From Terriglobia bacterium (GTDB lineage Bacteria; Acidobacteriota; Terriglobia; 20CM-2-55-15), in contig CBDCLE010000022.1 of NCBI GenBank assembly GCA_965218585.1, positions 32,001-96,000 on the forward strand: DNA of 64,000 nucleotides. The letters are read 5' to 3'. The notes beneath the pieces are model-generated. The model saw only the letters and a program-made list of their open reading frames with translations, was not told the DNA's origin and made no database searches. Of this stretch, positions 44,398 to 60,669 are shown piece after piece (position 1 is the first letter of the stretch; each line of letters opens with the position of its first letter). The position numbers and the translations under genes were made by a program.

Positions 44398-46134
44398 CCC
44401 GCATGTTTCACCAGTCCGGCGATCAGGGGGATTTGGGCAGTAAGAATCGGATTCGGGAGGATCTGGGTTCGAATTGGGCATGTGTGGCGTGACTCGGCGG
44501 TGTCGACAAGCGGGAGTTGCTGCGTTTTCGGGTTCAGAAGAGGGTGACGAAACGCACTGAGACAAACCTCGGCGGAGCCGAAAAGAACGAGTCGATTTTG
44601 GCGCAGGGGATCGGGTCGGTTCTCAGCAGCGCAGAGGAAGCGCCTGCAGGTTTCGATGGACGAGGGCAAAGACCTCGGCGTAGGGATAGGCTTCCGACAT
44701 GGAGATCCAGATGTTGCGAACCGTCAGACGGACTTGAGCTCCGATCTTGAGGAGCTTCAAGCGGATCGTCTGGCACTGAGCGCGGGCCAGATCGGTATTC
44801 TTCAGTCCCAGACGGCGTAACGCGTGCAGGAGCATGTAGGCGGCCGAGGACAGATAGAGCCGGAGTTGATTGGCGCGCATGGTTGCCGCGCTGGTCCGGT
44901 CGGCGAATAGATCCAACTGCTGTTCCTTGATGCGATTTTCCATGTCGCCCCGCGCACAGTAAAAGTCTTCATAGAGGGCGCGGGCGTCCAGGCGTTCCGG
45001 CGACAGTGAGGTCACAACGAATCGAGGATTGGCGCCTTTCTCCAGGAACTCGGCCTTGCCGATGACGCGTCGGGTGCAGGTCCAGCTCTTCCGAGTGCGA
45101 TACCGGAAATCGTTAAACACCCGCGCCGGTTTCCCGGTGTCGTTAAACTCGGCTTCGGCCTGACTCATCGATTCAGCGATCTCGCGCTTGAGCCGATCGT
45201 TCTTGGCCAGACCCACCACGTAATCGACCTGGTGGGCCTCGCACCAACTCAGCAATTCATCCCGGCAAAAGCCCGAGTCGGCCCGGATGATAATCGACAC
45301 CTCCGGCCAGCTCTGCCGGATCTGGCCGATGATGCGGTTCAATTCCTCGACGGCGCCGTCCGCACCGTCGACATTGGAGCACCGCAACCGGGCGCATAGC
45401 AGATGCTCTCCCGAAAAGATGTAGAGCGGCAGATAACAGTAGTTGCCGTAGTAGCCGTGAAAGAACCGTCCTTCCTGATGGCCATGGATCGGATCATCGG
45501 TCGCATCCAGGTCCAGAACAATCTCCTCGGGCGCCGATCCGTGAGCCGCCACAAATGCATCCACCATCCAGCGGTCGATCTTGTCCGGGTCCATGGCAAT
45601 CTTCTTGTACCGCTCCTTCCCATCGACTTGCTCCCCGGTCAGTTCCAACCGGTTCAGCGTACACTTGCCCGCCAACGCTTTTCCCCGGTCTCGGGCCTGC
45701 CGCCGCTTCTCCCCCAGTGGATCGGCCTTATCCACCGCCACGGCCAGCATCGGATCGGTCCGCAGTTGGTCATGATCGTTCAGATCCTCGTAGCCCAGAC
45801 AGAGTCCGTAGACGCGCTGCCCCAATAACTCGCTCACCGTGTGTTCGATCAACCTCGCGTCCCGGTAATCCCTGAAACACTCGGCCAGTCCGGCGATCAG
45901 ACCCGTTCGCTTTTCCACTTCCCTCAACAGCAGAACCCCAGCGTCGGAGGTGATCTTTCCGCCGTCAAAACGCGCCTTCACTTTTCGTTGAAGAAGTCCG
46001 TGAAATTCGAACGTCGTTTGGTTACACTCTGTTCTCATAAGGGCCGTCTCCGTTTGGCTTGTTAAACGTTTATTTCAAAACGCTTTATGCCAGACAGGGC
46101 GGCCTTTTCTGGTCCTATCGGTGAAATATGCGGG
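44398..46134 (-). mobile_element. IS1380-family insertion sequence, copy 2 (1737 bp)
   Basis: Near-identical to copy 1, inverted; CTAG duplication at 44394-97 and 46135-38. Confidence 0.95.
44623..46038 (-). CDS. IS1380-family transposase
   Basis: Same protein as 12974-14389 except M/I in KK(M/I)AMD. Confidence 0.95.
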   Translation of the reverse strand: MRTECNQTTFEFHGLLQRKVKARFDGGKITSDAGVLLLREVEKRTGLIAGLAECFRDYRDARLIEHTVSELLGQRVYGLCLGYEDLNDHDQLRTDPMLAVAVDKADPLGEKRRQARDRGKALAGKCTLNRLELTGEQVDGKERYKKIAMDPDKIDRWMVDAFVAAHGSAPEEIVLDLDATDDPIHGHQEGRFFHGYYGNYCYLPLYIFSGEHLLCARLRCSNVDGADGAVEELNRIIGQIRQSWPEVSIIIRADSGFCRDELLSWCEAHQVDYVVGLAKNDRLKREIAESMSQAEAEFNDTGKPARVFNDFRYRTRKSWTCTRRVIGKAEFLEKGANPRFVVTSLSPERLDARALYEDFYCARGDMENRIKEQQLDLFADRTSAATMRANQLRLYLSSAAYMLLHALRRLGLKNTDLARAQCQTIRLKLLKIGAQVRLTVRNIWISMSEAYPYAEVFALVHRNLQALPLRC

Positions 46135-46347: not shown

Positions 46348-46602
46348 GATTTTGGTCTCCTGGCCGTCATTAACAGCAAATTCCCTTCCATAAATCGGAT
46401 CTTGTGATTCCTGCTGGCCTACCCTCAGGAAGGGCGGGTTGTTGGAAGCAATCAGAGACATGGAGCCGGGGCCCGATTACCTGGATTTCTCTACAAGAAC
46501 AGGGTCTTCTCTGTGCCTCGGTGCCTCTGTGGTTTCGGTTCTTTCCAGTTGGGAATCGCAATTGCTGCGGCGCTTATGCTGCAGTCCGTAAGCTCAGAGA
46601 GA

Positions 46603-48105
46603 ATGAAGCGATCCTCGACCCGTTCGGGGCGCCCAAACGTTGAAATCGAAGGCGTTGCCTACCACAGCCCTTACGATCCGGCGAGGGAAGCCCGCTCGTT
46701 TTATACGGGATTGCCATTGGAGGAAGCTGACGTTGTTCTCCACTTCGGGTGGGGCCTGGGCTACTCCGGCCACTACCTCAGCGAGCGGTTGGGCGCCGAT
46801 ACGCGGGTGTTTGTACTCGAGCCTGATCGGGATGTTTTCGACCTGTTCTGTGCCGAGGGGGAAGGCCGAGAACTCCTTGAAGACTCACGGTTCCAGTACG
46901 TGGTCGGAAAGGAGGTAGGTCAATTCATTGACGATTGGGGCCTTGCGGGGTGTCAAGATACTGACCGTATTCTGTGGATAGGATGGCCGCGGGCCGATCA
47001 GATGTTCGGTGAGCTTTCCAACTCCGTGCAGGCCGCGTTCAACGCCCGTCTCCGTGACAGGGCGGGAAACCTCCTCACGCACTTCGAAAACGGACGTACC
47101 TATTTCGAGAACGCTGCATCCAACCTGAAGTACGCGTCAGACCCAAGGGTCGGTCGTTTGTTCGGCCGCTTCAAGGGACTGCCGCTCGTACTCGTTTCGG
47201 CGGGACCCTCGCTTGATCGCAATATTCGTTACCTGACGGGGATGGAAGAACGCTGCTTCATTCTGGCCGTCGATACGGCTCTGCGGCCGCTGCTGGCCGA
47301 AGGTATCGTTCCGCATGCGGTGATCATCGCAGACCCGAGCGAACTGAACGCCCGTCATGTCGTTGGCGCCCTGCCGCGGGATACGTACCTGATCGCGGAG
47401 CAGGCGGCGCATCCCCTGGCGATGGCTGCTGGGGCGAACCGATTTCAGTTTTCGGTTGGCGTGTTCCCCGACGCACTCTACGAGGAATTTGGAGCAGAGC
47501 AGACCAGGCTCCAAGTCTGGGGATCGGTTGCGACTGCCGCACTCGACCTGGCCTGCCGTATGGGTGCGGATCCCGTCATTTTTGCCGGTCAGGATTTTTC
47601 ATATACCTGGGATCATGATTACGCAAGACACACGATTTTTCACGGCAGAGTCTTCAACCGAAAGGCGCTGGATCATTCTGAGTCCGACGTTTGGGGCCAG
47701 GAGGTGCCAACTACGGAAAACCTCATGGCCTATAGAGACTTTTTCGTGAGACGAATAGCCGAAGCGTCGTCCACGCGGTTCGTGAATGCGACTGAAGGCG
47801 GGATATTGACCGACGGGGTTGAGATCCGTTCGCTGCGGGACGCCCTCCACCGTTATGCCGACCGACGCGTGGACATCCGGGGAAAGCTTCGAGGGCTCCA
47901 CGTTCGGGGTAACCAAATGCAGCCTCTAGCAAGCCATCTTGAAGGCGTTCTTACCCGGAAAGATCCCTCCTGTGGTTGCCTGGAAGCGTTCCTCGATCTG
48001 GTGGCAAAAAAGGCCGTTCTGGAGAAAGATACGACTTCGATCGAGGAGTGCCTGGCCTGGGGAGCTTCCTTCGCATCCAACCTCTCGAACACGCCCGTCG
48101 GCTGA
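46603..48105 (+). CDS. MAF/DUF115 (MptE-like fold) glycosyltransferase-family protein
   Basis: HSPYDP.REA, G.GLGY, LVSAGPSLDRN, AVDTAL..L...GI.PH, GSVAT, G..PVIFAGQDFSY, NATEGG. Confidence 0.85.
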   Translation: MKRSSTRSGRPNVEIEGVAYHSPYDPAREARSFYTGLPLEEADVVLHFGWGLGYSGHYLSERLGADTRVFVLEPDRDVFDLFCAEGEGRELLEDSRFQYVVGKEVGQFIDDWGLAGCQDTDRILWIGWPRADQMFGELSNSVQAAFNARLRDRAGNLLTHFENGRTYFENAASNLKYASDPRVGRLFGRFKGLPLVLVSAGPSLDRNIRYLTGMEERCFILAVDTALRPLLAEGIVPHAVIIADPSELNARHVVGALPRDTYLIAEQAAHPLAMAAGANRFQFSVGVFPDALYEEFGAEQTRLQVWGSVATAALDLACRMGADPVIFAGQDFSYTWDHDYARHTIFHGRVFNRKALDHSESDVWGQEVPTTENLMAYRDFFVRRIAEASSTRFVNATEGGILTDGVEIRSLRDALHRYADRRVDIRGKLRGLHVRGNQMQPLASHLEGVLTRKDPSCGCLEAFLDLVAKKAVLEKDTTSIEECLAWGASFASNLSNTPVG

Positions 48106-48383: not shown

Positions 48384-49403
48384 GTGGAACTGACCTCGGC
48401 GCAGATCAACATTTCCTGGTTTTGTGACTTTCACAGCAACGCTTCTACTTCATGTGAGTACTGCTGGGTCACGATGGCGCAGTCGGACCGGTCCAGGCAA
48501 TTGGATCACGGACCCGAGGAATGGCTCGAAGCCATCACCCGGACGATTCCGAACACCGCCCACATCAACTTCGTTGGTGGAGAACCGACGATTTTTCCGA
48601 AGTTTCATTGGCTCCTCACAGAACTGTCGAAGACGCACCGATGGGCGATCACGTCGAACATGGGTGCCAACCGGTGGCGGCTTTACGGCGAAGAGCCCAT
48701 TCCCAATTGCGTATCCTGGACCGCGTCCTACCATCCCTCGAGTCGTGATTCGATTGAGGAGTTTACGGCCAAGTGCATCATTCTCGGTCGCCACTATCCG
48801 CTACAGGTCAACCTGGCGGACTATCACACCTACGATGCTACCTCAGCTACGGACCAACTGGCCGAGGCCGGGCTACGCGTGTTCCTCTCGCCGTTTGAAG
48901 ACGTCCGGGACCTCAACAGCGCAGGGCCGGTGCCACTGACGTGTAACGGTGGACAGTCCCACGTCTTGATCGACCCGGAAGGGCACGTCTACAAGTGTCT
49001 GACTCAGGAACGACGCTCCGACCGGGAGCGCTGGCGGATCGGAAACGTTTTCGAAGGTCAGATCAACTGGCCGACCACACGTAGCGTCTGCTTCATTCCC
49101 TGCGACCAGTACTACAACCTCGACCAGCACCATGCGACACGGGACATGTGGAACCTCGATGTCCGTGAAATGGTCGTTCCCGAGGGAGTGGACCTTACGG
49201 CCTACAGAGAGAGCTTTAACGCTCCGGCTTCACCTCTTAAGGAGTTCATCCAGCAGTCCAAGTGGCGCGACAACATTACGGCGCAGGCACGGGGCGACCT
49301 GCTTGAACTGGACCTGATCCAAGAAGGTGAACCTGTCGAAGTCGTTGCGGAAATTACGTCCTCCGAAGTCGAGGAGTCGGGTTCGAAGAAAACGAAACAA
49401 TGA
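48384..49403 (+). CDS. Radical SAM/twitch protein with CX9CX2C motif
   Basis: CDFHSNASTSCEYC, FVGGEP, ITSN, ASYHP; C.GG....IDPEG.VYKC...IGNVF...C..PC; AGGAG RBS. Confidence 0.8.
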   Translation: MELTSAQINISWFCDFHSNASTSCEYCWVTMAQSDRSRQLDHGPEEWLEAITRTIPNTAHINFVGGEPTIFPKFHWLLTELSKTHRWAITSNMGANRWRLYGEEPIPNCVSWTASYHPSSRDSIEEFTAKCIILGRHYPLQVNLADYHTYDATSATDQLAEAGLRVFLSPFEDVRDLNSAGPVPLTCNGGQSHVLIDPEGHVYKCLTQERRSDRERWRIGNVFEGQINWPTTRSVCFIPCDQYYNLDQHHATRDMWNLDVREMVVPEGVDLTAYRESFNAPASPLKEFIQQSKWRDNITAQARGDLLELDLIQEGEPVEVVAEITSSEVEESGSKKTKQ

Positions 49404-50488
49404 GCAGACCTGATACATATCGCCGGTACCGTGTGAAATCTCCCATGCAGTTCCGTCTGGATGAGTATCCGATTCCGGCGACTCCCGAAAAGGACTATCT
49501 CGTTCGTGTGGACGTGTGCGGTCTGTGTCGTAGCGATCTGCATTTCGCGACGAGCTGGGCCGAGGGCTGGGACGAACTGGGCCACGAATTCGGTGGAACA
49601 GTTGTCGCCCTGCGGAATGGCGTTGACGGATTCCGTCAGGGCGATCGCGTAGCGGTCAAGAACGCAGCAGCCTGTCTCGAGTGTGAGCCTTGTTTGGCCG
49701 GCGATCTTCGTTCCTGCCGCGGCCTCATCGTCAACAAGCTCGGCTTCAGTCAGTACGCCGACTGTGACGGCCGATCTCTGGTGTCCGCCCAGGGCCTTGG
49801 TGATGCGCTATTGGCTCTCATGGAGCCCACCAACGTCGTTCTCGACCTGATCTATTCGGCAGAAATCGAAAAAACAGACAGGGTAGCGGTCTTTGGAACC
49901 GGCACTCTGGGAATCATCACTGCCCATCTGCTCGAGAATTATTTTGGAGTCTCCGATGTCGTCCTGATCGGTCGGCAACCCGACGAGGCAGTGCTCGCTG
50001 ATGTCGGCCTGACCCGGCACATCGGCTTCGATGAACTCATCGACAAGACGACCCTTCGAAATCTTCTGGGCGGTGCACCGGACCGTGTTCTGGTGACGAC
50101 GCCTCCGTCGACATTGTCGGATGCCCTGGAGGCATGTGGCCCGGTGGGCCGCGTGCTGACGCTTGGCCTTGACCGGAATGACTACCTCGAGGCGAACATC
50201 GACGTCCGTACGCTGATCTTCAAACGGGTGCGCGTCGAAGGCGTGTTTGCCGTACCGAATCTCTATTTCGACGACGCCGTCCGGATACTTTCCGAGGTCG
50301 GCACACCTTTAGAGAGCCTCATCCGTCGGCGCATCGGGTTCGATGATCTGGAAACAGCACTTCGAGAATGGGACGCGAGACCCCATTTTGATGGCAAGTC
50401 GATCCTTGAACTCCAGAGAGGTTCGGACGCGCGTGAAGAGGCGATGGAAGTCGTTGTCTCAGGTTCGAGCCGGGAGGCGTCATGTTAG
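49400..50488 (+). CDS. Zn-dependent (MDR) alcohol/sugar dehydrogenase
   Basis: CGLCRSD, GHE, CxxCxxC...C, EP, G.GTLG. Confidence 0.88.
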   Translation: MSRPDTYRRYRVKSPMQFRLDEYPIPATPEKDYLVRVDVCGLCRSDLHFATSWAEGWDELGHEFGGTVVALRNGVDGFRQGDRVAVKNAAACLECEPCLAGDLRSCRGLIVNKLGFSQYADCDGRSLVSAQGLGDALLALMEPTNVVLDLIYSAEIEKTDRVAVFGTGTLGIITAHLLENYFGVSDVVLIGRQPDEAVLADVGLTRHIGFDELIDKTTLRNLLGGAPDRVLVTTPPSTLSDALEACGPVGRVLTLGLDRNDYLEANIDVRTLIFKRVRVEGVFAVPNLYFDDAVRILSEVGTPLESLIRRRIGFDDLETALREWDARPHFDGKSILELQRGSDAREEAMEVVVSGSSREASC

Positions 50489-51033
50489 CCCTCAGAGGCG
50501 AATCGCTTCCGGATCATCGGGTCCGCAGAATTCTCATTCTCCGCACCGCCAGGACTCCCCAGATTCAGTGGGCCCTGGACCAGCTTCGCGCGAAGTACCC
50601 CGAAGCCGAATTTGGCGTCCTCGGGACCCAGTTGGGCGGGAACGAGTTGTTCGCGGGAATGGAGCACTTCGAGCCGTCCCAACCCTGGCTTTCACCGAGG
50701 AGCGTCCGGCGTTTGCGGTCCAGACTCAGGAAAACCCGGTTCGACATGGTTGTCATGTGTCTTAACGGCGATTGTGGAACCGGATACGGTGGTGTCAGTC
50801 GTGTTGTCCGGAGAATCGATGCACCCTTCAAGTTCGTAGCGGGGTACACAGGGCGTTGGCACAAGTGGGACCACATGGACTTTGAAGAGGGGAACGTCCT
50901 GACCCGCGGACTCGTCAATTGCCTTGGGATCCTGATCTATCCGTTGATCGCGACCTATCTGTTGCTCGTTCCTTCCCGTCCGCGCTACATGCCGGGCCGG
51001 CAGGGAGCGACGGCCCCGGGGTACGAAGCATGA
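50482..51033 (+). CDS. Standalone GT9-N-lobe-like protein with C-terminal membrane anchor
   Basis: RRILILRTAR...L.AKYPEAE..VL...LR...FDMVV; C-terminal hydrophobic helix. Confidence 0.6.
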   Translation: MLALRGESLPDHRVRRILILRTARTPQIQWALDQLRAKYPEAEFGVLGTQLGGNELFAGMEHFEPSQPWLSPRSVRRLRSRLRKTRFDMVVMCLNGDCGTGYGGVSRVVRRIDAPFKFVAGYTGRWHKWDHMDFEEGNVLTRGLVNCLGILIYPLIATYLLLVPSRPRYMPGRQGATAPGYEA

Positions 51034-52295
51034 AGGTTCTCCACTTTTGCTCGTTCTACCGGCCGCTGGGCGGTGGCGAAAAACTTCTCTTCAGTGTCCT
51101 CGACATCATGGAGAGAAACGGGGTCGAGAACGTCATCGTCGCTCCCGAGTCCCAATCGAACGGGCCGACGGGTCTGAGGAAGGAATACTTTCTCGACTAC
51201 CTCGAGTACCCCTTTACGCGGAGCGATCTGTTTTCGTCCATCTGGAACAACCGGAAGCTGATACGGGCGATATCCGAGGTCTTGAAAAAGGAGCAGCCCA
51301 ACGTCATCCACCTGCACAACCAGCAGAACCCGTTTATATACCTGGCGTGTTTGAGGAGCGGGATTCCGATGGTTCGCAACATCCATGATCCACGCCTCTA
51401 TTGCCCGACGAACTGGCGCCTGTTGCCTGACAAGAGCCTGTGTCCACATGCGTTTGGCCGGGCCTGCATTTCCGAGGGGTGCATCAAGCCTCGATCCAGA
51501 GATCTTAAGCAGTTTTTCGTAACGTTGTTCAACCGCCAGCTTTCGTTCCGGAACACGACGTTGATCATCGAAAGTCAGGAGTCATATCAGATGGCCCTGC
51601 AGAACGGATACCGGGAAGATCAACTCAGCCTGATCCCCAACTGCACGACGCTTCCGCCGCTCGAGGCGGAGCTCGAAAACAAGGAGCGCTACAGCAAACT
51701 CGGAGAGAAGAGCATTCTCTTCGTCGGCCGGGCGAGTTATGAGAAAGGGCTTCATTTCCTGGTCAACGCTCTACCGAAGCTCAGGAACGATTTCAAACTC
51801 TACATCCTGACCGCGGGCGACTACTACAAAGAACAGATTGCTCCGCTGGTCGAAAAACTCGGCCTCGGTTCGCGGGTTGAGGCTCGCTTCAACACAAGCT
51901 ACGAAGATACCGCCAAGTACTACTCGATGGCCGACGTCGTCGTTGTGCCGTCGATTTGGTTCGAAACTTTCTGCCTGATCGGCATTGAGGCGTACTCGCA
52001 CCTGACGCCTGTGGTGGCGACCCGCACGGGTGGAATCAAGGATTGGTGCGTGGACGGCGAAACAGGTTACCTCGCAGAAATATTTGACGAAGACGCACTC
52101 GCAGCCGGGATCGATGCACTCCTGGACGACCCGCAGAAGGCGAGACAGTTTGGACTGAACGGATACAATCGGGTCCGGGAACACTACAGCGAAGACATTT
52201 ACTACCGGCGCTTACGAGCGCTCTATGAAAAGGTGATTCAAGATGGCCAGAGTGACACTTATCGATTCTTTGGGCTGGCAAGACGGCCTGTTTAA
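51030..52295 (+). CDS. GT4 glycosyltransferase with Cys-rich insert
   Basis: GGGEK, HD..LYCP...C...C....C, ILFVGR...EKG, PSIWFETFCLIGIEA. Confidence 0.9.
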   Translation: MKVLHFCSFYRPLGGGEKLLFSVLDIMERNGVENVIVAPESQSNGPTGLRKEYFLDYLEYPFTRSDLFSSIWNNRKLIRAISEVLKKEQPNVIHLHNQQNPFIYLACLRSGIPMVRNIHDPRLYCPTNWRLLPDKSLCPHAFGRACISEGCIKPRSRDLKQFFVTLFNRQLSFRNTTLIIESQESYQMALQNGYREDQLSLIPNCTTLPPLEAELENKERYSKLGEKSILFVGRASYEKGLHFLVNALPKLRNDFKLYILTAGDYYKEQIAPLVEKLGLGSRVEARFNTSYEDTAKYYSMADVVVVPSIWFETFCLIGIEAYSHLTPVVATRTGGIKDWCVDGETGYLAEIFDEDALAAGIDALLDDPQKARQFGLNGYNRVREHYSEDIYYRRLRALYEKVIQDGQSDTYRFFGLARRPV

Positions 52296-54072
52296 TCTGG
52301 GCCTTGCCTACCTGAGCTCTTCACTGAAGCTTGGCGGGCATCAGGTTCGCGTTCTCGATCTCAACAATAAGTTCCGGAAACCGGAAGAGGTTGTTGACGT
52401 CATCGGCGAGCATGCGCCCGACTACGTGGGTTTCTCCGTTAAGTCAGCGACCTTTGCCAACGCGGTGGAATTGCACAAGAAACTTGCCGCAAAGTATCCG
52501 GACGTCACGTTCCTATACGGCGGCCCGCACATCACTCTGTCCAAGACAAATATCATGGATGAGGCTCCACGGGCCTTCTTCATTCGGGGTGACGCCGAGT
52601 TTACGCTACCCGACTTTGTGGGACGTCATTCCAGGGGCGAGACCGATTTCAGCGACATCGACGGGATCATGTACAGAAGCCAGGCCGGCGAAGACGTCGC
52701 CGTGGACATTCAGTTCCACACCGAGATCGATGACCTCCCGTTGCCCGACTTCACGACGTTCGACAGCTTCCCGTCCTTCAAGACGTATCCGCTCTTGACC
52801 AGCCGGGGATGTCCTTACAAGTGCACCTATTGCTCGGTGCCCGCCATCAGTGGCAAACGTTGGGTCTATCGGTCGGCCCCAAGCATTATGAAGGAGCTGG
52901 ACCACGTCCTGAACTTCCTGAAGATGAATAACGTTGTGATCGTGGACGACAACTTCACGTTGCACAAGAAACGTGCCGAATCGGTGTGCCAGGCGATCCT
53001 GGACAACGGTTACAAGTTCAACTGGTCCTGTGGCAACGGGATCCGGGCCGACCGGATCTGGCCGGATCTGGCCAGCCTCATGCACAAGGCCGGATGTGTT
53101 GAAGTAGCCTTCGGCATCGAAAGCCTGCAGGAAGATGTCTTCGATCTGCTTCGCAAGGGCGAAGAGGTTTCCCATATCCGTCATGGCATCGAAGTCGTTC
53201 AGGAAGCGGGACTCAACGTGACTGGTTTCTTCATGATCGGACTGCCCGGTTCAACATATCGCAAAGATCTGAAGACGCTGGCTCTGGCACGCAGGTTGAA
53301 CCTGAACAACTATTACTTCGGTTTGACAGTTCCCTATCCCGGCACAGAAATGTGGGACTGGGCGCAGGAAAACGCGCGTTTTCTCGTGCCGTGGCAGAAC
53401 AGCTACCACATCTCTGAGGTGTTCCGCGATGGTCTGGAGCGTCTCAAGCTCGAACCGGTGTTTGACACGCCGGAGTATCCGGCCGAAGAACGCAAGAAGA
53501 TGTTCCATACGGTTCAGGCCTCGAAGAAGAAGGCTCAGGACCGTAGTCTCCGGTTGATCCAGAGCAGCCTCCGAGCTGCACCCGGCCGTCCGATCATCGT
53601 CATGCGGACGTCTCGGCGCGATGGTCTTTTTGAGATGTTCAGGGACGAAAAGCCGTCCAATCCCCACGTGATCCTCTATAAGGGAAGCGACGGATTCCTC
53701 GAGAACCTGGCCGAAGAGACACGAAACGCATATCAGCAGATCCACGTAGATGGCGAAGGCTTCTTCGATGCGGGCGATGCCAGAGGTCTTTCCGAAGACC
53801 TTAAGGATGCGGTCATTGTGTTCGACGTTCCGAACGGCAATCTGGAGCGATACCAGAACCTGGTGCGCTTTGCCAGGGAACTCAATCCTCGACAGATCGT
53901 TGCTCTCGTGGGCGATGAGTTTGAAGTCCTGTCGGTAGGTGACCCTGAGATCAGCGAGCCCGAGACTTCGTTCGCTTCTCCCGACATGGAGCCGGTTTAC
54001 CTCGGAATCGACCTCGATCCGTCCGAACTGGTCAAGATTGAAATGGCGCCTGTGGGCGCGTCGAAGAGATGA
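52243..54072 (+). CDS. B12-binding (class B) radical SAM protein with C-terminal GT9-like domain
   Basis: LGLAYL, GGPH, GDAE, TSRGCPYKCTYC, DDNF, GIES, FMIGLPG, PYPGT. Confidence 0.9.
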   Translation: MARVTLIDSLGWQDGLFNLGLAYLSSSLKLGGHQVRVLDLNNKFRKPEEVVDVIGEHAPDYVGFSVKSATFANAVELHKKLAAKYPDVTFLYGGPHITLSKTNIMDEAPRAFFIRGDAEFTLPDFVGRHSRGETDFSDIDGIMYRSQAGEDVAVDIQFHTEIDDLPLPDFTTFDSFPSFKTYPLLTSRGCPYKCTYCSVPAISGKRWVYRSAPSIMKELDHVLNFLKMNNVVIVDDNFTLHKKRAESVCQAILDNGYKFNWSCGNGIRADRIWPDLASLMHKAGCVEVAFGIESLQEDVFDLLRKGEEVSHIRHGIEVVQEAGLNVTGFFMIGLPGSTYRKDLKTLALARRLNLNNYYFGLTVPYPGTEMWDWAQENARFLVPWQNSYHISEVFRDGLERLKLEPVFDTPEYPAEERKKMFHTVQASKKKAQDRSLRLIQSSLRAAPGRPIIVMRTSRRDGLFEMFRDEKPSNPHVILYKGSDGFLENLAEETRNAYQQIHVDGEGFFDAGDARGLSEDLKDAVIVFDVPNGNLERYQNLVRFARELNPRQIVALVGDEFEVLSVGDPEISEPETSFASPDMEPVYLGIDLDPSELVKIEMAPVGASKR

Positions 54073-54094
54073 AATCCCCTGCTTCCGATATGTG

Positions 54095-54963
54095 ATGAAA
54101 GTTCTGTTCTTCAATACGTTGTCAGCCGTGAATGGAGGCGCGGAGCGTGTGCTCTTCGACACTTCCCTCGAGCTGCTCGAGCGCGGACACGAAGTGTCGG
54201 TTGTAGCCGCCTACGACGACCGACGCTCAAGGAACCCCGAATCCTGGCCCGGGGAAATCAACCGTTACTACATCCCCGAGTTGATCCGGCCGGTCACAGG
54301 GCGTCGAACCTACGATGCCTATCGCCGAAGCTCCTTCTATAAGAATGGACTCCGGTATGCACAGGATGTGATACCTGAGAAGGGATTGCTGGAACTGGTC
54401 CAGGCCGTGGGCCGGACACGTTCGAATCCCACGCTCCTTGCTGTTGGAACCGACGAGACACTCTGGTCGGGCGCATATCGGAACGAGATTATTCGGGAAG
54501 CCCAAAAATGGGGCGTGCGCCTGGAGACCGAGCCGTGGTCGACGGGCAAGGAGTTGCGGCTGCCTATAGCCGGGCAAAGGTGGTCGCCTTCAGTTCAGTC
54601 TGGCCCGAACCCTTCGGCCTTGTCGGTATTGAAGCGATGGCTCACGGCAAGCCCGTTGTCGCCTTTGACAATGGCGGTGTCAGGGACTGGCTGCGGCATG
54701 GCCAGACAGGTTACCTTGTCCCAAAATCTGACGTTGTGACCTTTGGACGCATTCTCGATTTACTCTTACCCGATGCGAGTTTACGGCGGTGGATGGGACA
54801 GAACGCGGCTCGCATTGCGCGCGATCAGTTTACCCCCGGCGCATACATCGATCGACTGACGAACGTTTACGGCGAAGTGGTAGTTAATGAAAGTACTTCT
54901 TATCGATCCTGCAGGAGCGCAGCGGTACGTTACGCACAACGCGGGGCTGGCATATCTGTCTAG
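54095..54963 (+). pseudogene. GT4 glycosyltransferase with large internal deletion and frameshift
   Basis: GGAER N-terminus jumps straight to PEKG; EPFGLVGIEAMAHGKPVV is in another frame after about 54560. Confidence 0.7.
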
Positions 54964-56586
54964 CGCGCTTCTGTCGAGAGGACACGATGTCCGTGTCCTC
55001 GACATGAACAACTATAGCTACACCGATCATGAGGTGGGGGCGTATGCGCGCGCCTACCAGCCCGACTGGGTGGGTGCATCCGTCAAGACAGCTCTTGTAA
55101 GTTCAGCCGAACGCACGATGCGTGAAATTCACCGGGTCTGTCCCGATGCCCGTACCGTAGTGGGTGGGCCCCACATCGGGGTTCAGGCTCGCGAGTACAT
55201 GGCTTCTCAGGATGTCTATGAATTCGGTCTGACCGGCGAGGGCGAGTATGCTCTTCCCGACCTCGTCGAAGGCAAGAACACGTCCGATATCTCGTGTCTT
55301 ATCTATTATGACGACGGGGAATGGCGCCAGAATCCAACCGAGTTCATCTTCGATCTCGACGACCTGCCCTACCCGACATACCGGACATGGGACCAGATCG
55401 ACCGTTCGGGCTTCCCGTATCTGATGGTTCATAGCCGTGGGTGCCCCTTTTATTGCACCTTCTGCAGCGTTCCCAAGATCAACGGCCGCAAGTTTCGTCG
55501 CCGTTCGCCGGAAGGAACCGTCGATGAGCTGCGTCACGCTCGCAACGAGTATGTGTTCCGCGACTTTGAGTTCCTGGACGACAACCTGACGCTCCATATC
55601 GACCATGCGAAGGAAGTCTGTGAAGCCTTGATCCGGGCCGATCTCGGCGTGGGTTGGTATGCCAATAACGGAATCCGTGCCGACCGGCTGGATAGCGAAC
55701 TGTGTGAACTCATGAAGCGCTCCGGTTGCAAGGGTGTTGCCATCGGGGTGGAATCGGCAGACGACGAAATCCTTGAAGCCATCAAGAAGGGTGAAACAGT
55801 CGATCAATTGTGGAACGGAATCCGTCTTCTCAAGGAAGCCGGCATCGTCGTCGGTGGTCACTTCATCGTCGGGCTTCCCGGCGACACACTCGAAAAGGTA
55901 AAGAAGAGCATCGAGTTCAAGGACAAGGTTGGTCTGGATTACGCTTACTTCAACCAGCTGGTCCCCTATCCGGGAACGGAGTTGGGCGAGTGGGCCCTGG
56001 AAAACACGAATATTCTGGTCGAAAACGTCACTGATGCGAGTCACTTTGGCGCCAAGGAACAAGTCTTCATGGAGACTCCGGAGTTTCCTCGTGAAGACAG
56101 GGAAGCCGTGTTCAAGTTGCTCTCCACCGACTACACGGACGGTCGCATCGCGTGCGAGGACTTCAGTGATCTTTATGGGGATCGAAGCGGGCTGAGAGTC
56201 CTTCTGATCAGGTCTGGCCGCATGGACCCGTACGAGCACGTGCGATCTCTGCTCCCTGAAGGGTCGGTTCTGGACGTTCTCGTTTCCAGCGGTGTCAGGA
56301 TCGAGGATTCGGCTGTGGACCATGTGATCGAGTTTCCAAACCAGGGCTGATGAGCGTCCGCGGGTTGGACAGGCTTCGGAAGCCCCTTGGTGACGCTTAT
56401 GATCTTGCGATATACCTGAACACCTTTCAGAACGGAATGAGTTTCGACAATATCGTGAAGATCGCCCGCCACTCGGGAACAAAGGTCTACGAGTACCAAG
56501 CGGGGCGGCACATGCGCGAAGTGAAGTCGGAAGGCTACCAGACGAGGGAGATCTATTCGAAAACGGCAGCCTCCGCAACGATCTGA
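54887..56586 (+). CDS. B12-binding radical SAM protein with C-terminal GT9-like domain (frameshift near 56345)
   Basis: GLAYL, GGPH, GEGE, SRGCPFYCTFC, DDN, GVES, FIVGLPG, PYPGT; adding one G at CAGGGCTG joins ORF 56350-56586. Confidence 0.88.
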
Positions 56587-56717
56587 GATAGACGGACTTT
56601 CGCAATGATAGAGTTTTTCTCAACTGTACGTGCCGTCTATGACCGCACGTCTCCAACCTTCGATGTTCCTTTGTGTGCTCCGAGAGCGCACCTACAGAAG
56701 AGCATCTGGGCTCGTTA

Positions 56718-57830
56718 ATGCGGATCCTCCACCTTATCCCCTTTCTTTGGAGTGGCGCCGGCGACGTAGTTACGCGTCTCGCCATTTCTCAGCATCAGAA
56801 CGCCACAGTAGGGGTCGTGACCAGCGGCAGCTCAAAAGGTGAGTCGGACTGGGATTCGTATCGTACGCGCCTCCAGGATGCGCGTGTCTCCCATTTCCAT
56901 GTCGATCTCTTCGACCGTGACCCGAACGTGTTCTGGTCGAGTGTTACCAGACTGAGGGAGGTCTTCGACGAATTTTCTCCCGACGTCGTTCACTGCCATT
57001 CCGGTGTCCCGGTGGCCGCAGCCGCTGCGGTTCGTGACGGTGGTGACAGAGACTTTGGGCTGATTGGTCAACTGCACAGCTGGGGTAAGAACCGCCCTCG
57101 ATGGATGAACACAATGGACCTGTGGGCATTTGGGCGCTCGGACCGCATCGTGTGCAATGCGGAAGACTACCGTCAGATTCTGATCGAATCCGGTATCTCT
57201 TCCGACCGTATCGTTGCCATTCCCTGGGGTTTGCAGCTTGATGAAATTCGGGCCGCGACATCCGAAAAAGACCGGCCCTCGGAGCGTATACGTTTGGGAT
57301 TCGTAGGCCGGGTCGAACCCCGCAAAGGGCAGTTGACCCTCGTTGAAGCGTTTGAACGGTTGCGGCAGGCCGGCACAGAAGCAAATCTGGAATTGATCGG
57401 TCCGATTGCCGATTCCGATTATGCCGAGGAGATCAGGAACACGATCCGGGACCATGAGCTCGGCGACAGCGTCGTCTTGCGTGGCAAGGTGTCCAACGTC
57501 TACGCCGACGTTGCCAACTGGGACCTGTTTGTCTCACTCTCCAGCGACGAGGGCCAGGGAATGGCCATTCTAGAAGCCATGGCGCTGGGAACCCCGGTCG
57601 TTTCCAGCGACATTCCAGGTGTCCGCGACTTTCTCAGGCATGAACACAACGGCTTGGTGGTCGATCCCCAGACTCCCGAACGCGTAGCGGCAACCATCGA
57701 TTGGGCCCTTACCAATCGTGACCAAACGCTACGGCTGGCCACGCGGGCACGCGAGATGGTCGATGAGAGTTATACGTGGGAGACCACCGTCTCGGGCATG
57801 GATCGCCTTTACTCCGAGGTCACTGGCTAG
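56718..57830 (+). CDS. GT4 glycosyltransferase
   Basis: PDVVHCH, FVGRVEPRKG, EGQGMAILEAMALGTPVV. Confidence 0.92.
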   Translation: MRILHLIPFLWSGAGDVVTRLAISQHQNATVGVVTSGSSKGESDWDSYRTRLQDARVSHFHVDLFDRDPNVFWSSVTRLREVFDEFSPDVVHCHSGVPVAAAAAVRDGGDRDFGLIGQLHSWGKNRPRWMNTMDLWAFGRSDRIVCNAEDYRQILIESGISSDRIVAIPWGLQLDEIRAATSEKDRPSERIRLGFVGRVEPRKGQLTLVEAFERLRQAGTEANLELIGPIADSDYAEEIRNTIRDHELGDSVVLRGKVSNVYADVANWDLFVSLSSDEGQGMAILEAMALGTPVVSSDIPGVRDFLRHEHNGLVVDPQTPERVAATIDWALTNRDQTLRLATRAREMVDESYTWETTVSGMDRLYSEVTG

Positions 57831-58385: not shown

Positions 58386-58601
58386 GTTAACGGTCCGGCC
58401 TGATTCCTCAGCTTTTCGATAAACCACCACCCAAATCCCGTTAAAAGGGAAATACTTTTGCACGGCCCGGAAGCCTTCGAGGTTCTCAGTGGATCCAGAA
58501 ATTCTGATTTTCGTTGGACTGGTTTGTTAAGCTTCGAATTCGATCCCGGTCCGGTAAGTCGTGCTGGGCAAGCAATTCAGACAACAGCGAGGAAACAGGA
58601 C

Positions 58602-59300
58602 ATGGCTCTTGAAGTAATTGGCGCGGGTTTCGGCCGGACTGGCACCGCGTCGTTGAAAGAGGCGTTAGAGATCCTGGGCTTCGTCAAATGCCATCACATG
58701 TCCGAAGTGATCCCCAGCCCGAAGCAGGCGCACCTCTGGCATCAACTCGCCGTCGAGGGATCGGTGGACTGGGACGACGTTTTCGAAGGCTATCGGGCAG
58801 CTGTGGACTTCCCGTCCAGCGTTTATTACCGCGAACTGTTGGAACGCTACCCTGATGCGCGAGTCATACTGTCGGTGCGTGACCCGGACGCCTGGTATCG
58901 TAGCGCCGTCCGAACTATTCATGCGATCATGAAAAACCAGCCGCGATGGCTGTTCCCTCTGATTCCCCGAATGCGAATTCTAGACAGGATGATCGATCGG
59001 ATCGTCTGGCAAGGTGTGTTCGATGGCCGTTTCGAAGACGAGGAACACGCGAAACAGGTGTTCAGGGATCATATCGAGAAGGTCAAATCAGTGATTCCGG
59101 CCGACAAGTTATTGGTCTATCAGATCACCGACGGCTGATCGCCGCTCTGCAAATTTCTCGATGTTCCAGAGCCCGAGGGTCTGGTATTTCCCAAGACCAA
59201 CGAGGCTCGGGAGATGATCCGAATCGTGCGGGTGATGAAAGCGCTCCGCCTCCTGCCATACATGGTGGTTGCTGCGGTTACCGCATGGGTTCTTCTTTGA
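58602..59300 (+). CDS. Sulfotransferase-family protein (Sulfotransfer_4 type) with in-frame TGA at 59136-59138
   Basis: VIGAGFGRTGTASLK.AL, C.HM, AAVDFP, RDPDAWY.S, DG*SPLCKFL...FP.TN; read-through stop overlaps cysC start. Confidence 0.85.
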
Positions 59301-59848
59301 CCGATCCCAGTAAACAGATCCGTCAAGTGACGTTGTGGCTGACGGGCCTGTCCGGAGCCGGGAAGAGCACTCTTGCGGAATTGGTCGCCGAAGAATTCGC
59401 CGCCAGGAAACTTCGGACGGAGATCCTAGATGGCGACACGATTCGACGGAACCTGTCCAAGGGGCTCGGATTCAGCAAAGAAGACCGCGACACGAACATT
59501 CGTCGAATCGGGTTCGTCGCCAATCTGCTCAGCCGAAACGGAGTCAATGTCATCGTTGCGGCTATCTCGCCGTACCGATCGATTCGGGAAGAGGTCCGGG
59601 CGTCGCAGGAAAGAGCCCGCTTCGTAGAAGTATTCGTCGACTGTCCGCTTGAAGCTCTAATTGAAAGGGACACGAAAGGACTCTACGCCAAAGCCCTGTC
59701 CGGCGAGGTGAAAAACCTTACGGGTGTTTCAGATCCCTACGAGCGGCCAGTGGATCCTGAAATAACCGTCCGAACGAACCTCGAAACGCCCGCCGAAAGT
59801 GCGGGTCAGATCATTCGCTGGTTAGAGGAAGCGGCGCTGATCTCCTAA
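59297..59848 (+). CDS. cysC: Adenylyl-sulfate (APS) kinase
   Basis: WLTGLSGAGKST, LDGD.IR, LGFSKEDRD.NIRRIG, ISPY, RD.KGLY.KA, TG.SDPYE. Confidence 0.95.
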   Translation: MTDPSKQIRQVTLWLTGLSGAGKSTLAELVAEEFAARKLRTEILDGDTIRRNLSKGLGFSKEDRDTNIRRIGFVANLLSRNGVNVIVAAISPYRSIREEVRASQERARFVEVFVDCPLEALIERDTKGLYAKALSGEVKNLTGVSDPYERPVDPEITVRTNLETPAESAGQIIRWLEEAALIS

Positions 59849-59878
59849 TTATGGGGACCGATTAGTCTGTCCCCATAA
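59849..59878. terminator. Hairpin between convergent cysC and cysQ
   Basis: TTATGGGGAC-N10-GTCCCCATAA, perfect 10-bp stem. Confidence 0.6.
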
Positions 59879-59886
59879 CTGGGCTA

Positions 59887-60669
59887 CTACCTCGTTTCCG
59901 CCAAAGCCTTTCCGACTGCCTCCTGGAGCGATAACGGGTGGGCGATGAGGCCCATCATGCGGGGATTCTTGTTGTTGAACGATCTGGGATTACCGTCGGG
60001 CGTGTAAGCGACCCCGCCAGCTGCGTTCATCAGGGCGATGCCCCCCGCGACATCCCATTCGTTCTTGGGCTGAAGGGTCCATGTGGCGTCGGCCTGTCCG
60101 GCCGCGACGAGCGCCAACTTGTAGGCGATCGAACCTACCGGTTTGATAACGAATCCGGCATCCTGAAAGCGATCCCATTCACCGCGTCTGCACTCGCTGC
60201 GGCTCGCCAGGACTGTGGCGCCGTTCAAGTTCCGCCTGCCGCTCAAGGTGACCGTTTCTGCCTGGTAGGTCACACCGTGGCCGAGGGCACCGACAAATAT
60301 TTCACCTGTCTGAGGGTTACAGACGCCGCCGGCGACGGCTTGGCCGTCTTCGACATAACCGATGGAGATGGCCCACTCAGGAATTCCGGCTACGAACTCT
60401 CGGGTCCCGTCGAGCGGATCGATGATCCAGAGTCGACGATGCGCGAGGCGGCTCGAATCGTCCGTAGTTTCTTCAGAGAACCAGCCTTCGTCTCCACGTG
60501 GCAGAGCTTGTTTGAGCGCTTCGTCCAGGGCTCGATCCGCTGCCGTTACAGGGTCGTTAACGCCTTTCCATTCGGGCGTGATTTCCCCGGGTGTGAACTT
60601 GGCGACGACGGTCTGGGCCGTTCGAATGGCTTCTGTGATCCGTTCCAGAATGTGGGCGTGGGTTTTCAT
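59887..60669 (-). CDS. cysQ: 3'(2'),5'-bisphosphate nucleotidase (PAP phosphatase)
   Basis: DPVTAAD, SEE, WIIDPLDGTREF, GSIAYK, EWDVAGG; adjacent to cysC. Confidence 0.85.
   Translation of the reverse strand: MKTHAHILERITEAIRTAQTVVAKFTPGEITPEWKGVNDPVTAADRALDEALKQALPRGDEGWFSEETTDDSSRLAHRRLWIIDPLDGTREFVAGIPEWAISIGYVEDGQAVAGGVCNPQTGEIFVGALGHGVTYQAETVTLSGRRNLNGATVLASRSECRRGEWDRFQDAGFVIKPVGSIAYKLALVAAGQADATWTLQPKNEWDVAGGIALMNAAGGVAYTPDGNPRSFNNKNPRMMGLIAHPLSLQEAVGKALAETR

Follow-up and report, generated by a model that had tools for sequence, protein, structure and literature searches.

The window (the whole stretch of DNA that was analysed, 64,000 nucleotides) contains a conserved gene cluster in which an alpha/beta domain resembling the N-terminal lobe (N-lobe) of GT9 glycosyltransferases is encoded as a standalone protein (gene A) and as the C-terminal tail of two B12-binding radical SAM proteins (genes B and C). 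The genes and features concerned are the following:

46513..48105, + strand: MptE-like (Maf/PseD-like) protein, head of the conserved cluster (PF01973, E 1.9e-34; synteny)
49400..50488, + strand: Zn-dependent alcohol dehydrogenase-like gene, ADH (PF08240 and PF00107)
50482..51033, + strand: gene A, the 183-aa standalone copy, with the domain first, then a hydrophobic helix, then a short conserved tail
50515..50871, + strand: GT9-N-lobe-like domain within A, roughly residues 12-130 (secondary-structure elements of the AF2 model at 16-128)
50896..50967, + strand: hydrophobic helix of A, presumed membrane anchor (residues 139-162; AF2 helix)
51030..52295, + strand: GT4a, a two-lobed glycosyltransferase between A and B (PF13439 and PF00534; synteny)
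52243..54072, + strand: gene B, B12-binding radical SAM protein of 609 aa with a C-terminal tail (PF02310 and PF04055)
53575..53931, + strand: GT9-N-lobe-like domain in the tail of B, roughly residues 445-563 (hhalign and AF2)
53986..54009, + strand: short conserved motif of B, M582-E-P-x-Y-x-G, in a low-confidence C-terminal extension
54095..54963, + strand: GT4b remnant (tblastn with the G021 orthologue)
54887..56350, + strand: gene C, first frame, B12-binding radical SAM protein, 487 aa to the TGA at 56348-56350 (PF02310 and PF04055)
56189..56529, + strand: GT9-N-lobe-like tail domain of C, split by a frameshift
56350..56586, + strand: gene C, second frame, encoding the final 78 tail residues (reading them requires a frame change at 56347-56350)
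56673..57830, + strand: GT4c glycosyltransferase, in a core block with C (NCBIfam GT4 families below cut-off; synteny)

The cluster with A, B and C is taken to be a sugar-polymer or cell-surface glycan gene cluster. The MptE-like protein at its head matches the PseD domain model below the cut-off (E 5.7e-11). The version of the cluster found in relatives includes a pyruvyl transferase. An adenylyl-sulfate kinase and a CysQ-like gene lie downstream.

Proteins B and C match the B12-binding domain (PF02310, 62.9 and 65.9 bits) and the radical SAM domain (PF04055, 75.9 and 100 bits), in all cases above the cut-off, and carry a CxxxCxxC motif that reads CPYKCTYC in B and CPFYCTFC in C. Both fall below the cut-offs of all named NCBIfam B12 radical SAM subfamilies, the best being HpnJ (138.8 and 167.9 bits for B and C versus a cut-off of 577.6), PhpK and BchE; the ladderane-cluster lipid enzyme is among the other models that stay below. 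C is 38% identical to B over 424 aa; this mutually conserved part ends at residue 421 of B and 409 of C, and the GT9-N-lobe-like domain comes after it in both proteins. The tail is kept in 14 homologues of B. Gene A belongs to a family of 18 homologues of 182-191 aa; the protein has no Pfam or NCBIfam family match and its AF2 model has a pLDDT of 79.9. Most standalone members show a hydrophobic segment where A has its helix, and the predicted topology is that of a protein presumably anchored in the membrane through residues 139-162. A search of the genome contigs with the A-family pattern gave 15 pattern matches, 0 of them confirmed.

Genes C and GT4b are broken in this genome. The frameshift of C lies in the sequence: all 26 C-family homologues, of about 530-580 aa, read straight through '...PGLM...', the orthologues in G020 and G021 are intact, and the second-frame piece is 69-70% identical to their C-terminus. 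A one-run Logan contig covers 56292-56565 with 0 differences from the sequence of C; the Logan contigs have a depth of about 2-7, and since run X1 lacks 56121-56524, read support for the frameshift comes from that single run, possibly made from the source sample itself. GT4b is without about residues 94-221 of its 427-aa orthologue and changes frame near 54544-54556, with the same letters in contigs from two studies. Part of the system may thus be inactive here, C being frameshifted inside the domain and GT4b being a remnant.

The first-pass annotation had recognised by eye a common order and common motifs in three segments of about 110 aa, and both the likeness and the coordinates given for A, B and C stand. 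BLASTP between the three segments gives E of at least 2.9 or no match. Pairwise alignment of the three shallow family profiles (Neff about 2), the check that annotation had proposed, gives E 0.034-0.57, always at collinear places; with the full-length shallow alignments of B and C the top hhalign match is the B12-binding domain, not the tail. The shallow profiles were replaced by broader ones, built from the standalone family and the distant members found in a whole-library search with that family, and it is only with this broader standalone profile that the alignments become significant. In hhalign, the C family aligns to it with Prob 95.5 and E 1.5e-8 over 103 columns (A 11-117 / C 418-521), and the B family with Prob 44.5 and E 2.3e-4 over 110 columns (A 8-119 / B 442-554); trimmed profiles give E 2.1e-12 for the C tail and 4.7e-6 and 7.6e-6 for the B tail. 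Set against the full-length B and C families, the broad profiles align with the tails rather than with the B12-binding domains. The B-tail score of 37.7 compares with 12.2 for the reversed profile and with a mean of 12.5 and a maximum of 22.6 in 100 column shuffles.

The HMMER profile of the distant members matches 25 of the 26 C-family proteins along almost the entire domain, with p from 3e-9 to 3.6e-4, and the 14 B-family proteins in partial collinear pieces only (best p 4.5e-4), the best reversed control having p 0.12. The two pieces of the C tail in the window match profile positions 4-59 and 57-123, one on each side of the frame change, and the tail does run across the frameshift as the first reading of the sequence had it. 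Direct hhalign comparison of the B tail with the C tail gives E 0.06, and in terms of sequence the B-tail link is the weakest of the homology links. The AF2 models of A and of the B-tail domain (pLDDT about 90 for the latter) have the same element order and spacing, b-a-b-(a)-b-a-b-a-b-b. Furthermore, an independent B12 radical SAM protein with a strongly A-like tail, from metagenome locus L013, aligns by BLASTP to the B and C families via the tails, which points to one old fusion. Taken together, these comparisons show that A, the B tail and the C tail, though diverged, represent a single alpha/beta domain, about 115 aa long and without a name, in three copies. A protein-cluster search with the C tail found only unnamed clusters at 0.83-0.85, below the meaningful level.

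The resemblance to the GT9 N-lobe, put forward in the same annotation, is borne out by profile comparison. The domain profiles align by hhalign to the N-lobes of the five GT9 proteins of this genome with E 1.4e-9, 4e-10 and 6.9e-12 over 108-115 columns (residues 10-119 of A to GT9 16-118 with E 1.4e-9), versus E of at least 0.009 for all five domains used as other Rossmann-type controls (GT4, ADH, MptE-like and B12-binding). In a six-frame genome scan with the distant-member profile, the four non-self matches with E < 0.001 are all GT9 N-lobes. Among PDB sequences, the best natural match is WaaF (1psw), with a marginal E of 0.012. It is the family profile that matches GT9: compared with GT9 by itself, the C tail reaches E 0.002-0.008, and the B tail shows no match.

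The fold search against WaaC and WaaF, also proposed at first pass, went part of the way: for the model of A, three GT9 structures are among the matches listed, namely 3tov (rank 3, E 4.4e-3), WaaC (2h1f, rank 18) and WaaF (1psw, rank 22; TMq 0.42, rmsd 3.3, 112 columns), but none of the matches reaches E <= 1e-3, and the GT9 entries are scattered among numerous other Rossmann folds. For the B-tail model, no GT9 is among the matches listed, the best being class I methyltransferases, GRAS and PIN, with E > 1e-3. Fold searches by themselves do not single out GT9. A class I methyltransferase-like identity of the B tail was rejected as primary label: these fold matches all have E > 2e-3, the SAM-binding glycine motif is absent after strand 1, where R-T-S-R-R-D is found, and sequence profiles favour the A-like family. 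On the profile evidence, the three segments are very probably one domain related to the GT9 N-lobe, and its ancestor appears to have been the acceptor-binding N-lobe of a GT-B glycosyltransferase of the GT9 (heptosyltransferase) type.

The donor-binding lobe is absent, as had been noticed from the sequence: at E <= 0.1, none of the three proteins A, B and C is matched by PF01075, A consists of the domain and its helix, and the tails end 30-45 aa past the domain. In the genome, PF01075 matches five full-length GT9 genes only (99-160 bits), all outside the cluster. The invariant residues of the three families, as placed by the alignments and by the models of A and the B tail, lie just after strand 1 and in or after strand 4. 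In brief, these are R21/T22 and D88/N95/Y102 in the A family; R455/S457/R458/R459/D460, with the motif IIVMRTSR at residue 451, and F527/D528/G532/N533 in the B family; and R428/S429/R431/D433 and Y491/D492/N498 in the C family. In the models these sites would coincide with the usual ligand site of Rossmann-like folds, and they occupy the place of the acceptor-side loop of GT9 with D13. In HepI, D13 is described as the catalytic Asp, in the loop after strand 1, positively charged N-lobe loops are used for the anionic Kdo2-lipid A, and GT-B N-lobes are given as acceptor-binding (PMC5713226). The invariant G-D of GT9 aligns by hhalign to P-Q of A, with Glu there in one A-family subclade, and in the family alignments to D-G in B and D-P in C, where an invariant Asp comes one residue early; the residue aligned with the catalytic Asp is thus Gln in A, Gly in B and Pro in C. 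Since the donor lobe is lost and the catalytic Asp position is not kept, the domain is not itself a transferase. In the C-terminal extension of B, the motif columns M582, E583, P584, Y586 and G588 are invariant, with AF2 pLDDT below 50 there.

No Pfam or NCBIfam model covers the domain, and its architecture carries no name in either, in keeping with its having been taken for undescribed. A list of fusion partners, likewise suggested at the outset, could be drawn up from the library, where 34 matches of the domain include 9 multidomain proteins: three with the domain followed by GT4, one with GT4 followed by the domain, one tandem pair, two radical SAM/SPASM proteins and one radical SAM fragment followed by the domain, and one with the domain followed by a class I methyltransferase. 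The B12 radical SAM protein of L013, found with a narrower alignment, is a further fusion of the type of B and C; it lies beside a GT2 and a full GT9, and the 9-10 kb that flank it on each side hold no free copy. The domain travels with enzymes of unrelated chemistry, all acting on glycans or small substrates. The end of the pyruvyl transferase of relatives is a candidate fourth copy, with E 2e-5 against one profile, 0.026 against another, and negative column similarity.

Among 41 related genomes, A and the B-type tail occur in exactly the same four, always in the block ADH-A-GT4a-B. Genomes G004, G020 and G021 carry this block, whereas G002, G013 and G024 lack it. In these last three, of seven related genomes, a C-type enzyme with its tail is encoded and neither A (searched by family profile) nor a B tail was found, nor any further copy within 18-20 kb around C.

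We tentatively favour, at somewhat less than an even chance, the reading that the domain is a portable substrate-binding module. The domain would bind a feature common to intermediates of the glycan pathway, probably an anionic membrane-linked sugar, and would present the bound substrate to the attached catalytic domain, here that of two B12-dependent radical SAM enzymes and elsewhere that of a GT4, a SPASM radical SAM or a SAM methyltransferase. The free copy A, putatively held at the membrane by its helix, would act in trans for the co-inherited block of ADH, GT4a and B. That the domain binds a ligand, what this ligand is and how A sits in the membrane are predictions. In favour of this role are, besides the homology of the three copies and their GT9 N-lobe relationship, the range of enzymes to which the domain is fused, the position of the invariant residues, the acceptor binding by GT-B N-lobes and the HepI loops, the part that C-terminal domains play in solved B12 radical SAM enzymes, and the neighbouring genes (GT4 genes, the MptE/PseD-like gene, the pyruvyl transferase of relatives, the adenylyl-sulfate kinase and the CysQ-like gene). 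Counting against it are the generic fold matches, the weak B-tail link and the broken C and GT4b genes. Moreover, the three copies have no BLAST-level similarity, so that a common ligand would need to be recognised by very few residues, and in the fusions of domain, hydrophobic segment and GT4 a true transmembrane helix would place the domain across the membrane from the GT4. A broader version, which we consider somewhat unlikely, would make this dead GT9 N-lobe a mobile 'substrate address' domain that directs unrelated enzymes, perhaps including pyruvyl transferases, to one membrane-bound anionic glycan, with tail-anchored free copies as membrane receptors passing intermediates from enzyme to enzyme, as a general way to organise glycan tailoring.

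It is unlikely that the domain is instead a docking or scaffold module whose copies bind each other or a common partner and assemble the enzymes at the membrane with A as receptor, comparable to Alg14, which recruits Alg13 and organises a multi-glycosyltransferase complex. The helix that follows the domain in A, the co-occurrence of A and the B-type tail in the same genomes and block, the tandem pair in one library protein and the conserved short motif in the disordered extension of B, which could be a docking peptide, fit such a module; however, tailed C-type enzymes occur without A or a B tail and the L013 enzyme without a neighbouring free copy, and the conserved residues seem, from models and alignments, to lie at the ligand-site end of the sheet, not on a flat face. 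Docking of the tailed radical SAM proteins onto membrane-anchored A, as first proposed, thus finds no support as a general rule, given the three of seven genomes with C-type enzymes in which no A was found.

Quite improbably, A could be the acceptor half of a split GT-B enzyme of the Alg14 type, with its donor half in trans and the tails left over from something comparable. Profile comparison does place the domain with GT-B N-lobes, and A, presumed to be membrane-anchored, always adjoins a glycosyltransferase gene, but the cluster holds no orphan donor lobe (GT4a has two lobes and GT4c is full length), PF01075 is confined to the five complete GT9 genes elsewhere in the genome, the catalytic Asp position has changed in all three copies, and a radical SAM or methyltransferase fusion partner does not fit glycosyl transfer. 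A generic Rossmann-type alpha/beta likeness between segments that are unrelated or have no common role would agree with the null pairwise BLASTP, the preference of the shallow profiles for the B12-binding domain and the mixed fold searches with different top matches for A and the B tail, but is most improbable in view of the broad profiles that pick the tails, the separation of the five control domains (E of at least 0.009) from the C tail (2e-12), the B tail (5e-6) and GT9 (7e-12), the shuffled and reversed controls far below the observed scores, and the common element order and spacing of the models.

The two lobes of a GT-B glycosyltransferase are commonly regarded as inseparable, Alg13/Alg14 being the textbook exception. 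Here, a GT9-type acceptor lobe stands on its own, undescribed by Pfam and NCBIfam, and has radical SAM, methyltransferase and GT4 enzymes as its fusion partners; no description of its fusion to a B12 radical SAM was found in a limited body of full texts. What B12-dependent radical SAM enzymes act on is notoriously difficult to predict, and if the domain binds an acceptor, it would offer a handle on the substrates of one clade of them, a signature by which glycan-tailoring enzymes could be recognised in genome sequences, and a test case for the shuffling of substrate-recognition modules between enzyme classes.

Compared with known systems, the domain shares with the GT9 enzymes WaaC/HepI and WaaF/HepII a strand 1 of the form h-h-h-h-R/K, a strand 2 'YP.A..h.VL' and a strand 4 'FDLvv'. 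Unlike GT9, which has a donor-binding C-lobe, A and the tails of B and C are without C-lobe and PF01075 match, strand 4 is followed by a signature peculiar to the family (LNN..G.GY), and the domain occurs either as a free protein with a hydrophobic helix or in fusions with enzymes other than glycosyltransferases. OxsB, TsrM and TokK resemble B and C in having an N-terminal B12-binding domain and a radical SAM domain, with extra C-terminal parts as substrate-binding candidates. In the solved B12 radical SAM structures treated in PMC9204698, C-terminal domains take part in substrate binding, being helical in OxsB and TsrM and of a new architecture in TokK; they differ from the additional alpha/beta GT9-N-lobe-like domain of B and C. 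A parallel to A in concept is Alg14, part of the split UDP-GlcNAc transferase that serves N-glycan assembly and has look-alikes in bacteria. Alg14 is of another, MurG-like GT family and is a GT-B N-lobe that exists as a separate membrane-anchored protein and works with separate catalytic proteins. It pairs with a matching C-lobe, Alg13, to form a working transferase, whereas no orphan C-lobe is seen in the cluster of A, B and C, and the partners here are radical SAM, methyltransferase and GT4 enzymes.

An alpha/beta domain of about 115 residues, resembling the N-lobe of GT9 heptosyltransferases (PF01075), is encoded three times in one glycan-type gene cluster: in a standalone protein (A) and in the C-terminal tails of two B12-binding radical SAM enzymes (B and C). 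The cluster is composed of the following genes:

46513-48105, + strand: MptE/PseD-like protein
48384-49403, + strand: small radical SAM/SPASM-like protein
49400-50488, + strand: Zn-dependent alcohol dehydrogenase-like protein (ADH)
50482-51033, + strand: protein A, 183 aa
51030-52295, + strand: glycosyltransferase GT4a
52243-54072, + strand: B, B12-binding radical SAM enzyme, 609 aa
54095-54963, + strand: GT4b, a GT4 remnant
54887-56350, continued in another frame at 56350-56586, + strand: C, B12-binding radical SAM enzyme
56673-57830, + strand: glycosyltransferase GT4c
3' of GT4c, + strand: NHL-like ORF

Directly upstream, a 471-aa ORF (44623-46038, - strand) is transposase-like by eye only. 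A 550-aa radical SAM/SPASM protein (42557-44209, - strand), whose approximately 190 N-terminal residues have no Pfam match, was not picked up by the genome-wide domain scan. Farther downstream, the stretch 58458-60669 contains a 226-aa ORF, an adenylyl-sulfate kinase (253.7 bits; NCBIfam cut-off 244) and, on the opposite strand, a CysQ-like phosphatase, which together hint that the glycan of this cluster may be sulfated; the 226-aa ORF had no NCBIfam match, and its reading as a sulfotransferase was made by eye only.

B and C are paralogues (38% identity over 424 residues), and their similarity stops at residue 421 of B and 409 of C. No Pfam model matched A or either tail at E <= 0.1. Against NCBIfam (E <= 1), the sole match of A was at chance level (E 0.21, 10.9 bits, cut-off 267), and neither the B tail nor the 78-aa second piece of C, each scanned alone, was matched. 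The low-confidence C-terminal extension of B carries a short motif, M-E-P-x-Y-x-G (53986-54009), which is invariant in 14 of 14 family members and may be a peptide docking motif.

The likeness of the three segments, noticed by eye in the first-pass annotation, is confirmed with profiles that include distant members and not with those of the close families. Indeed, pairwise BLASTP gave nothing usable, and hhalign of the three close-family profiles stayed at E 0.034-0.57; each time the matches lay at the collinear positions proposed initially, but they were no better than one to the B12-binding domain. Searching a whole library of 1.84 billion representatives with an HMM of the A family retrieved 34 proteins at E <= 1e-3, many just 20-30% identical to A. 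With the broader profile, (i) the C tail was found within the full-length C family (Prob 95.5, E 1.5e-8, 103 columns) and, when trimmed, at E 2.1e-12, and (ii) the B tail was found within the full-length B family (E 2.3e-4, 110 columns) and, when trimmed, at E 4.7e-6 and 7.6e-6, its score of 37.7 standing against 12.2 for the reversed alignment and a mean of 12.5 (sd 2.2, maximum 22.6) for 100 column shuffles. HMMER matched nearly the whole domain in 25 of 26 C-family proteins (p 3e-9 to 3.6e-4) and partial collinear pieces only in the 14 B-family proteins (best p 4.5e-4), against a best p of 0.12 in reversed controls. As modelled by AF2, A (pLDDT 79.9) and the tail of B (approximately 88-95 in the domain blocks) agree in how their elements are ordered and spaced: strand, helix, strand, (helix), strand, helix, strand, helix and a final strand pair.

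The proposed resemblance to the GT9 N-lobe is also supported, at the profile level and as a specific one. Run against the 51,317 six-frame ORFs of the genome, the distant-member profile gave four non-self matches below E 0.001 (1.2e-5 to 8.9e-4), followed by a fifth that was not significant (E 0.4-0.5); all five ORFs encode PF01075 heptosyltransferase-family proteins of approximately 350-380 aa, each matched in its first 100-170 residues. By hhalign, the domain profiles aligned over 108-115 columns with these five GT9 proteins (GT9 positions of about 16-145), at E 1.4e-9, 4e-10 and 6.9e-12, whereas the controls (GT4a, GT4c, the ADH of the cluster, the MptE-like protein and the B12-binding domains of both radical SAM enzymes, B and C) gave E 0.0094 to 0.46. 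Alone, the C tail matched GT9 at just E 0.002-0.008 and the B tail gave no match in the profile comparison, so the link of the tails to GT9 runs via the A-like family. Among PDB sequences, the best natural match was WaaF (1psw; E 0.012, N-lobe 18-91), ranking after one de novo designed protein and before two others. Structure searches discriminated less well. The matches listed for A include three GT9 entries (3tov, rank 3; 2h1f, rank 18; 1psw, rank 22, rmsd 3.3 over 112 columns), with many other Rossmann folds between them and no match reaching E 1e-3; the search with the B tail placed class I methyltransferases, GRAS and PIN domains on top, with no GT9 among the matches listed.

Judged from its sequence, the domain is not a glycosyltransferase. 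As initially stated, no donor-binding lobe is present in A, B or C according to the Pfam scan, and the G-D pair of GT9, whose D13 is the proposed catalytic base in HepI (PMC5713226), is not kept: A has P-Q at the aligned position, B has D-G and C has D-P.

Of 41 related genomes, the same four (G000, G004, G020 and G021) were found to carry the A family and the B-type tail; all four keep the order MptE-like ... ADH-A-GT4a-B-GT4b-C-GT4c-NHL. The C-type tail was found in seven. The cluster of G002, G013 and G024 is shorter and devoid of ADH-A-GT4a-B: it has the MptE-like and NHL-like genes, a pyruvyl transferase gene, GT4b, C and GT4c, and in G002 also the small radical SAM gene; no free domain copy was found within the 18-20 kb examined around it. 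A is therefore associated with B and not with C, and the tail of C functions, or is at least retained, where a free copy is missing. The G002 copy of C is interrupted by approximately 1.4 kb (between query residues 238 and 227), and an integrase-core/HTH gene lies within the G021 cluster (L007 5977-7146). In relatives, a polysaccharide pyruvyl transferase (PF04230) is encoded between the MptE-like gene and the remainder of the cluster, at the following positions outside the window:

L007, 3594-5123
L005, 5998-7446
L006, 5586-7187

Its C-terminal extension is weakly domain-like, two profiles giving hhalign E values of 2e-5 and 0.026. The transferase is missing from the cluster studied here, a 50%-identical copy being encoded approximately 32 kb past the window end (G000, contig C22, 127920-129386).

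The present genome shows the reverse: its ADH, A, GT4a and B genes are intact, and the damage lies in the core genes GT4b and C. GT4b lacks approximately residues 94-221 of its 427-aa G021 orthologue, with a frame change near 54544-54556, and this region has the same letters in Logan contigs from two studies. In C, a TGA (56348-56350) is followed by another frame from 56350; by comparison, all 26 retrieved C-family proteins, mostly of approximately 530-580 aa, are continuous through '...YP.PGLM...', and a single ORF encodes the orthologue in G020 (575 aa) and in G021 (570 aa). A Logan contig (low depth, from one run that may be the source sample) spans 56292-56565 with zero differences, so the break is probably not merely an artefact of this assembly. 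At 56347-56350, the stop of the first frame overlaps the ATG opening the second (TGATG); provided that the break is real, each half of the tail domain could thus be made as a peptide of its own.

The HMM also yielded the fusion partners of the domain, nine of the 34 library proteins being multidomain. In brief, these include: three fusions of the domain, a hydrophobic segment and then GT4 (P0075, P0077, P0091); one of GT4 then the domain; two of radical SAM and SPASM then the domain; one of the domain then a class I methyltransferase; one protein with two tandem copies; and one fragment (41% identical) of a B12 radical SAM enzyme like that of the independent metagenomic locus L013, together with the domain. 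The other 25 are mostly of 150-200 aa with a hydrophobic segment after the domain, four being short fragments or partial matches; no Pfam family (E <= 1) was matched by more than two of 26 standalone members. The L013 enzyme (586 aa) has a strongly A-like tail, its relative P0084 having been included in the profile. By BLASTP it aligns with the B and C families from end to end, including the tails, at 22-24% identity (E 2e-18 and 3e-26), and radical SAM enzyme plus tail therefore looks like an old, shared combination. At L013 (7751-11632), the radical SAM gene is directly followed by a GT2 gene and then, on the other strand, by a full-length GT9 gene; the flanking 9-10 kb in each direction contain no free domain copy.

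The function of the domain is inferred from three elements taken together: acceptor binding by GT-B N-lobes, the placement of invariant residues and the chemically unrelated partners. GT-B N-lobes bind the acceptor, and in HepI the loops of this lobe that handle an anionic, lipid-linked sugar are positively charged (PMC5713226). In all three families, Arg then Ser or Thr (with more Arg in B and C) are invariant right after strand 1, and Asp, Asn and an aromatic residue in or after strand 4; in the models, these positions sit at the classical ligand end of the sheet. We tentatively favour a portable substrate-binding cassette, carried by enzymes of unrelated chemistry, that would recognise a shared glycan intermediate, probably anionic and membrane-linked. 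A docking or scaffold role comes second and seems rather unlikely; the standalone family offers it a hydrophobic segment, and the C tail occurs in genomes with no free copy nearby. Still more doubtful is an Alg14-like split transferase, for which there is a free N-lobe next to GT4 genes and, on the other side, the replaced G-D pair. Mere generic likeness, to which the mixed Rossmann folds of the structure search would correspond, is very improbable beside the hhalign controls. The single hydrophobic segment of the domain-GT4 fusions poses a puzzle for the favoured substrate cassette: if truly membrane-spanning, it would put the domain on the opposite side from the cytoplasmic GT4. In the standalone family this segment frequently has a central Pro, and it may, as a guess, be a monotopic anchor instead.

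Full-text literature searches turned up nothing on the domain family or its fusions among the papers listed. Each part is of a known kind, the GT-B N-lobe as well as the class B radical SAM enzyme, and Alg14 is a precedent for a free GT-B N-lobe. In comparison with these systems, the family itself, its GT9 ancestry, the loss of the transferase parts and the attachment to enzymes of the radical SAM, methyltransferase and GT4 types are new.
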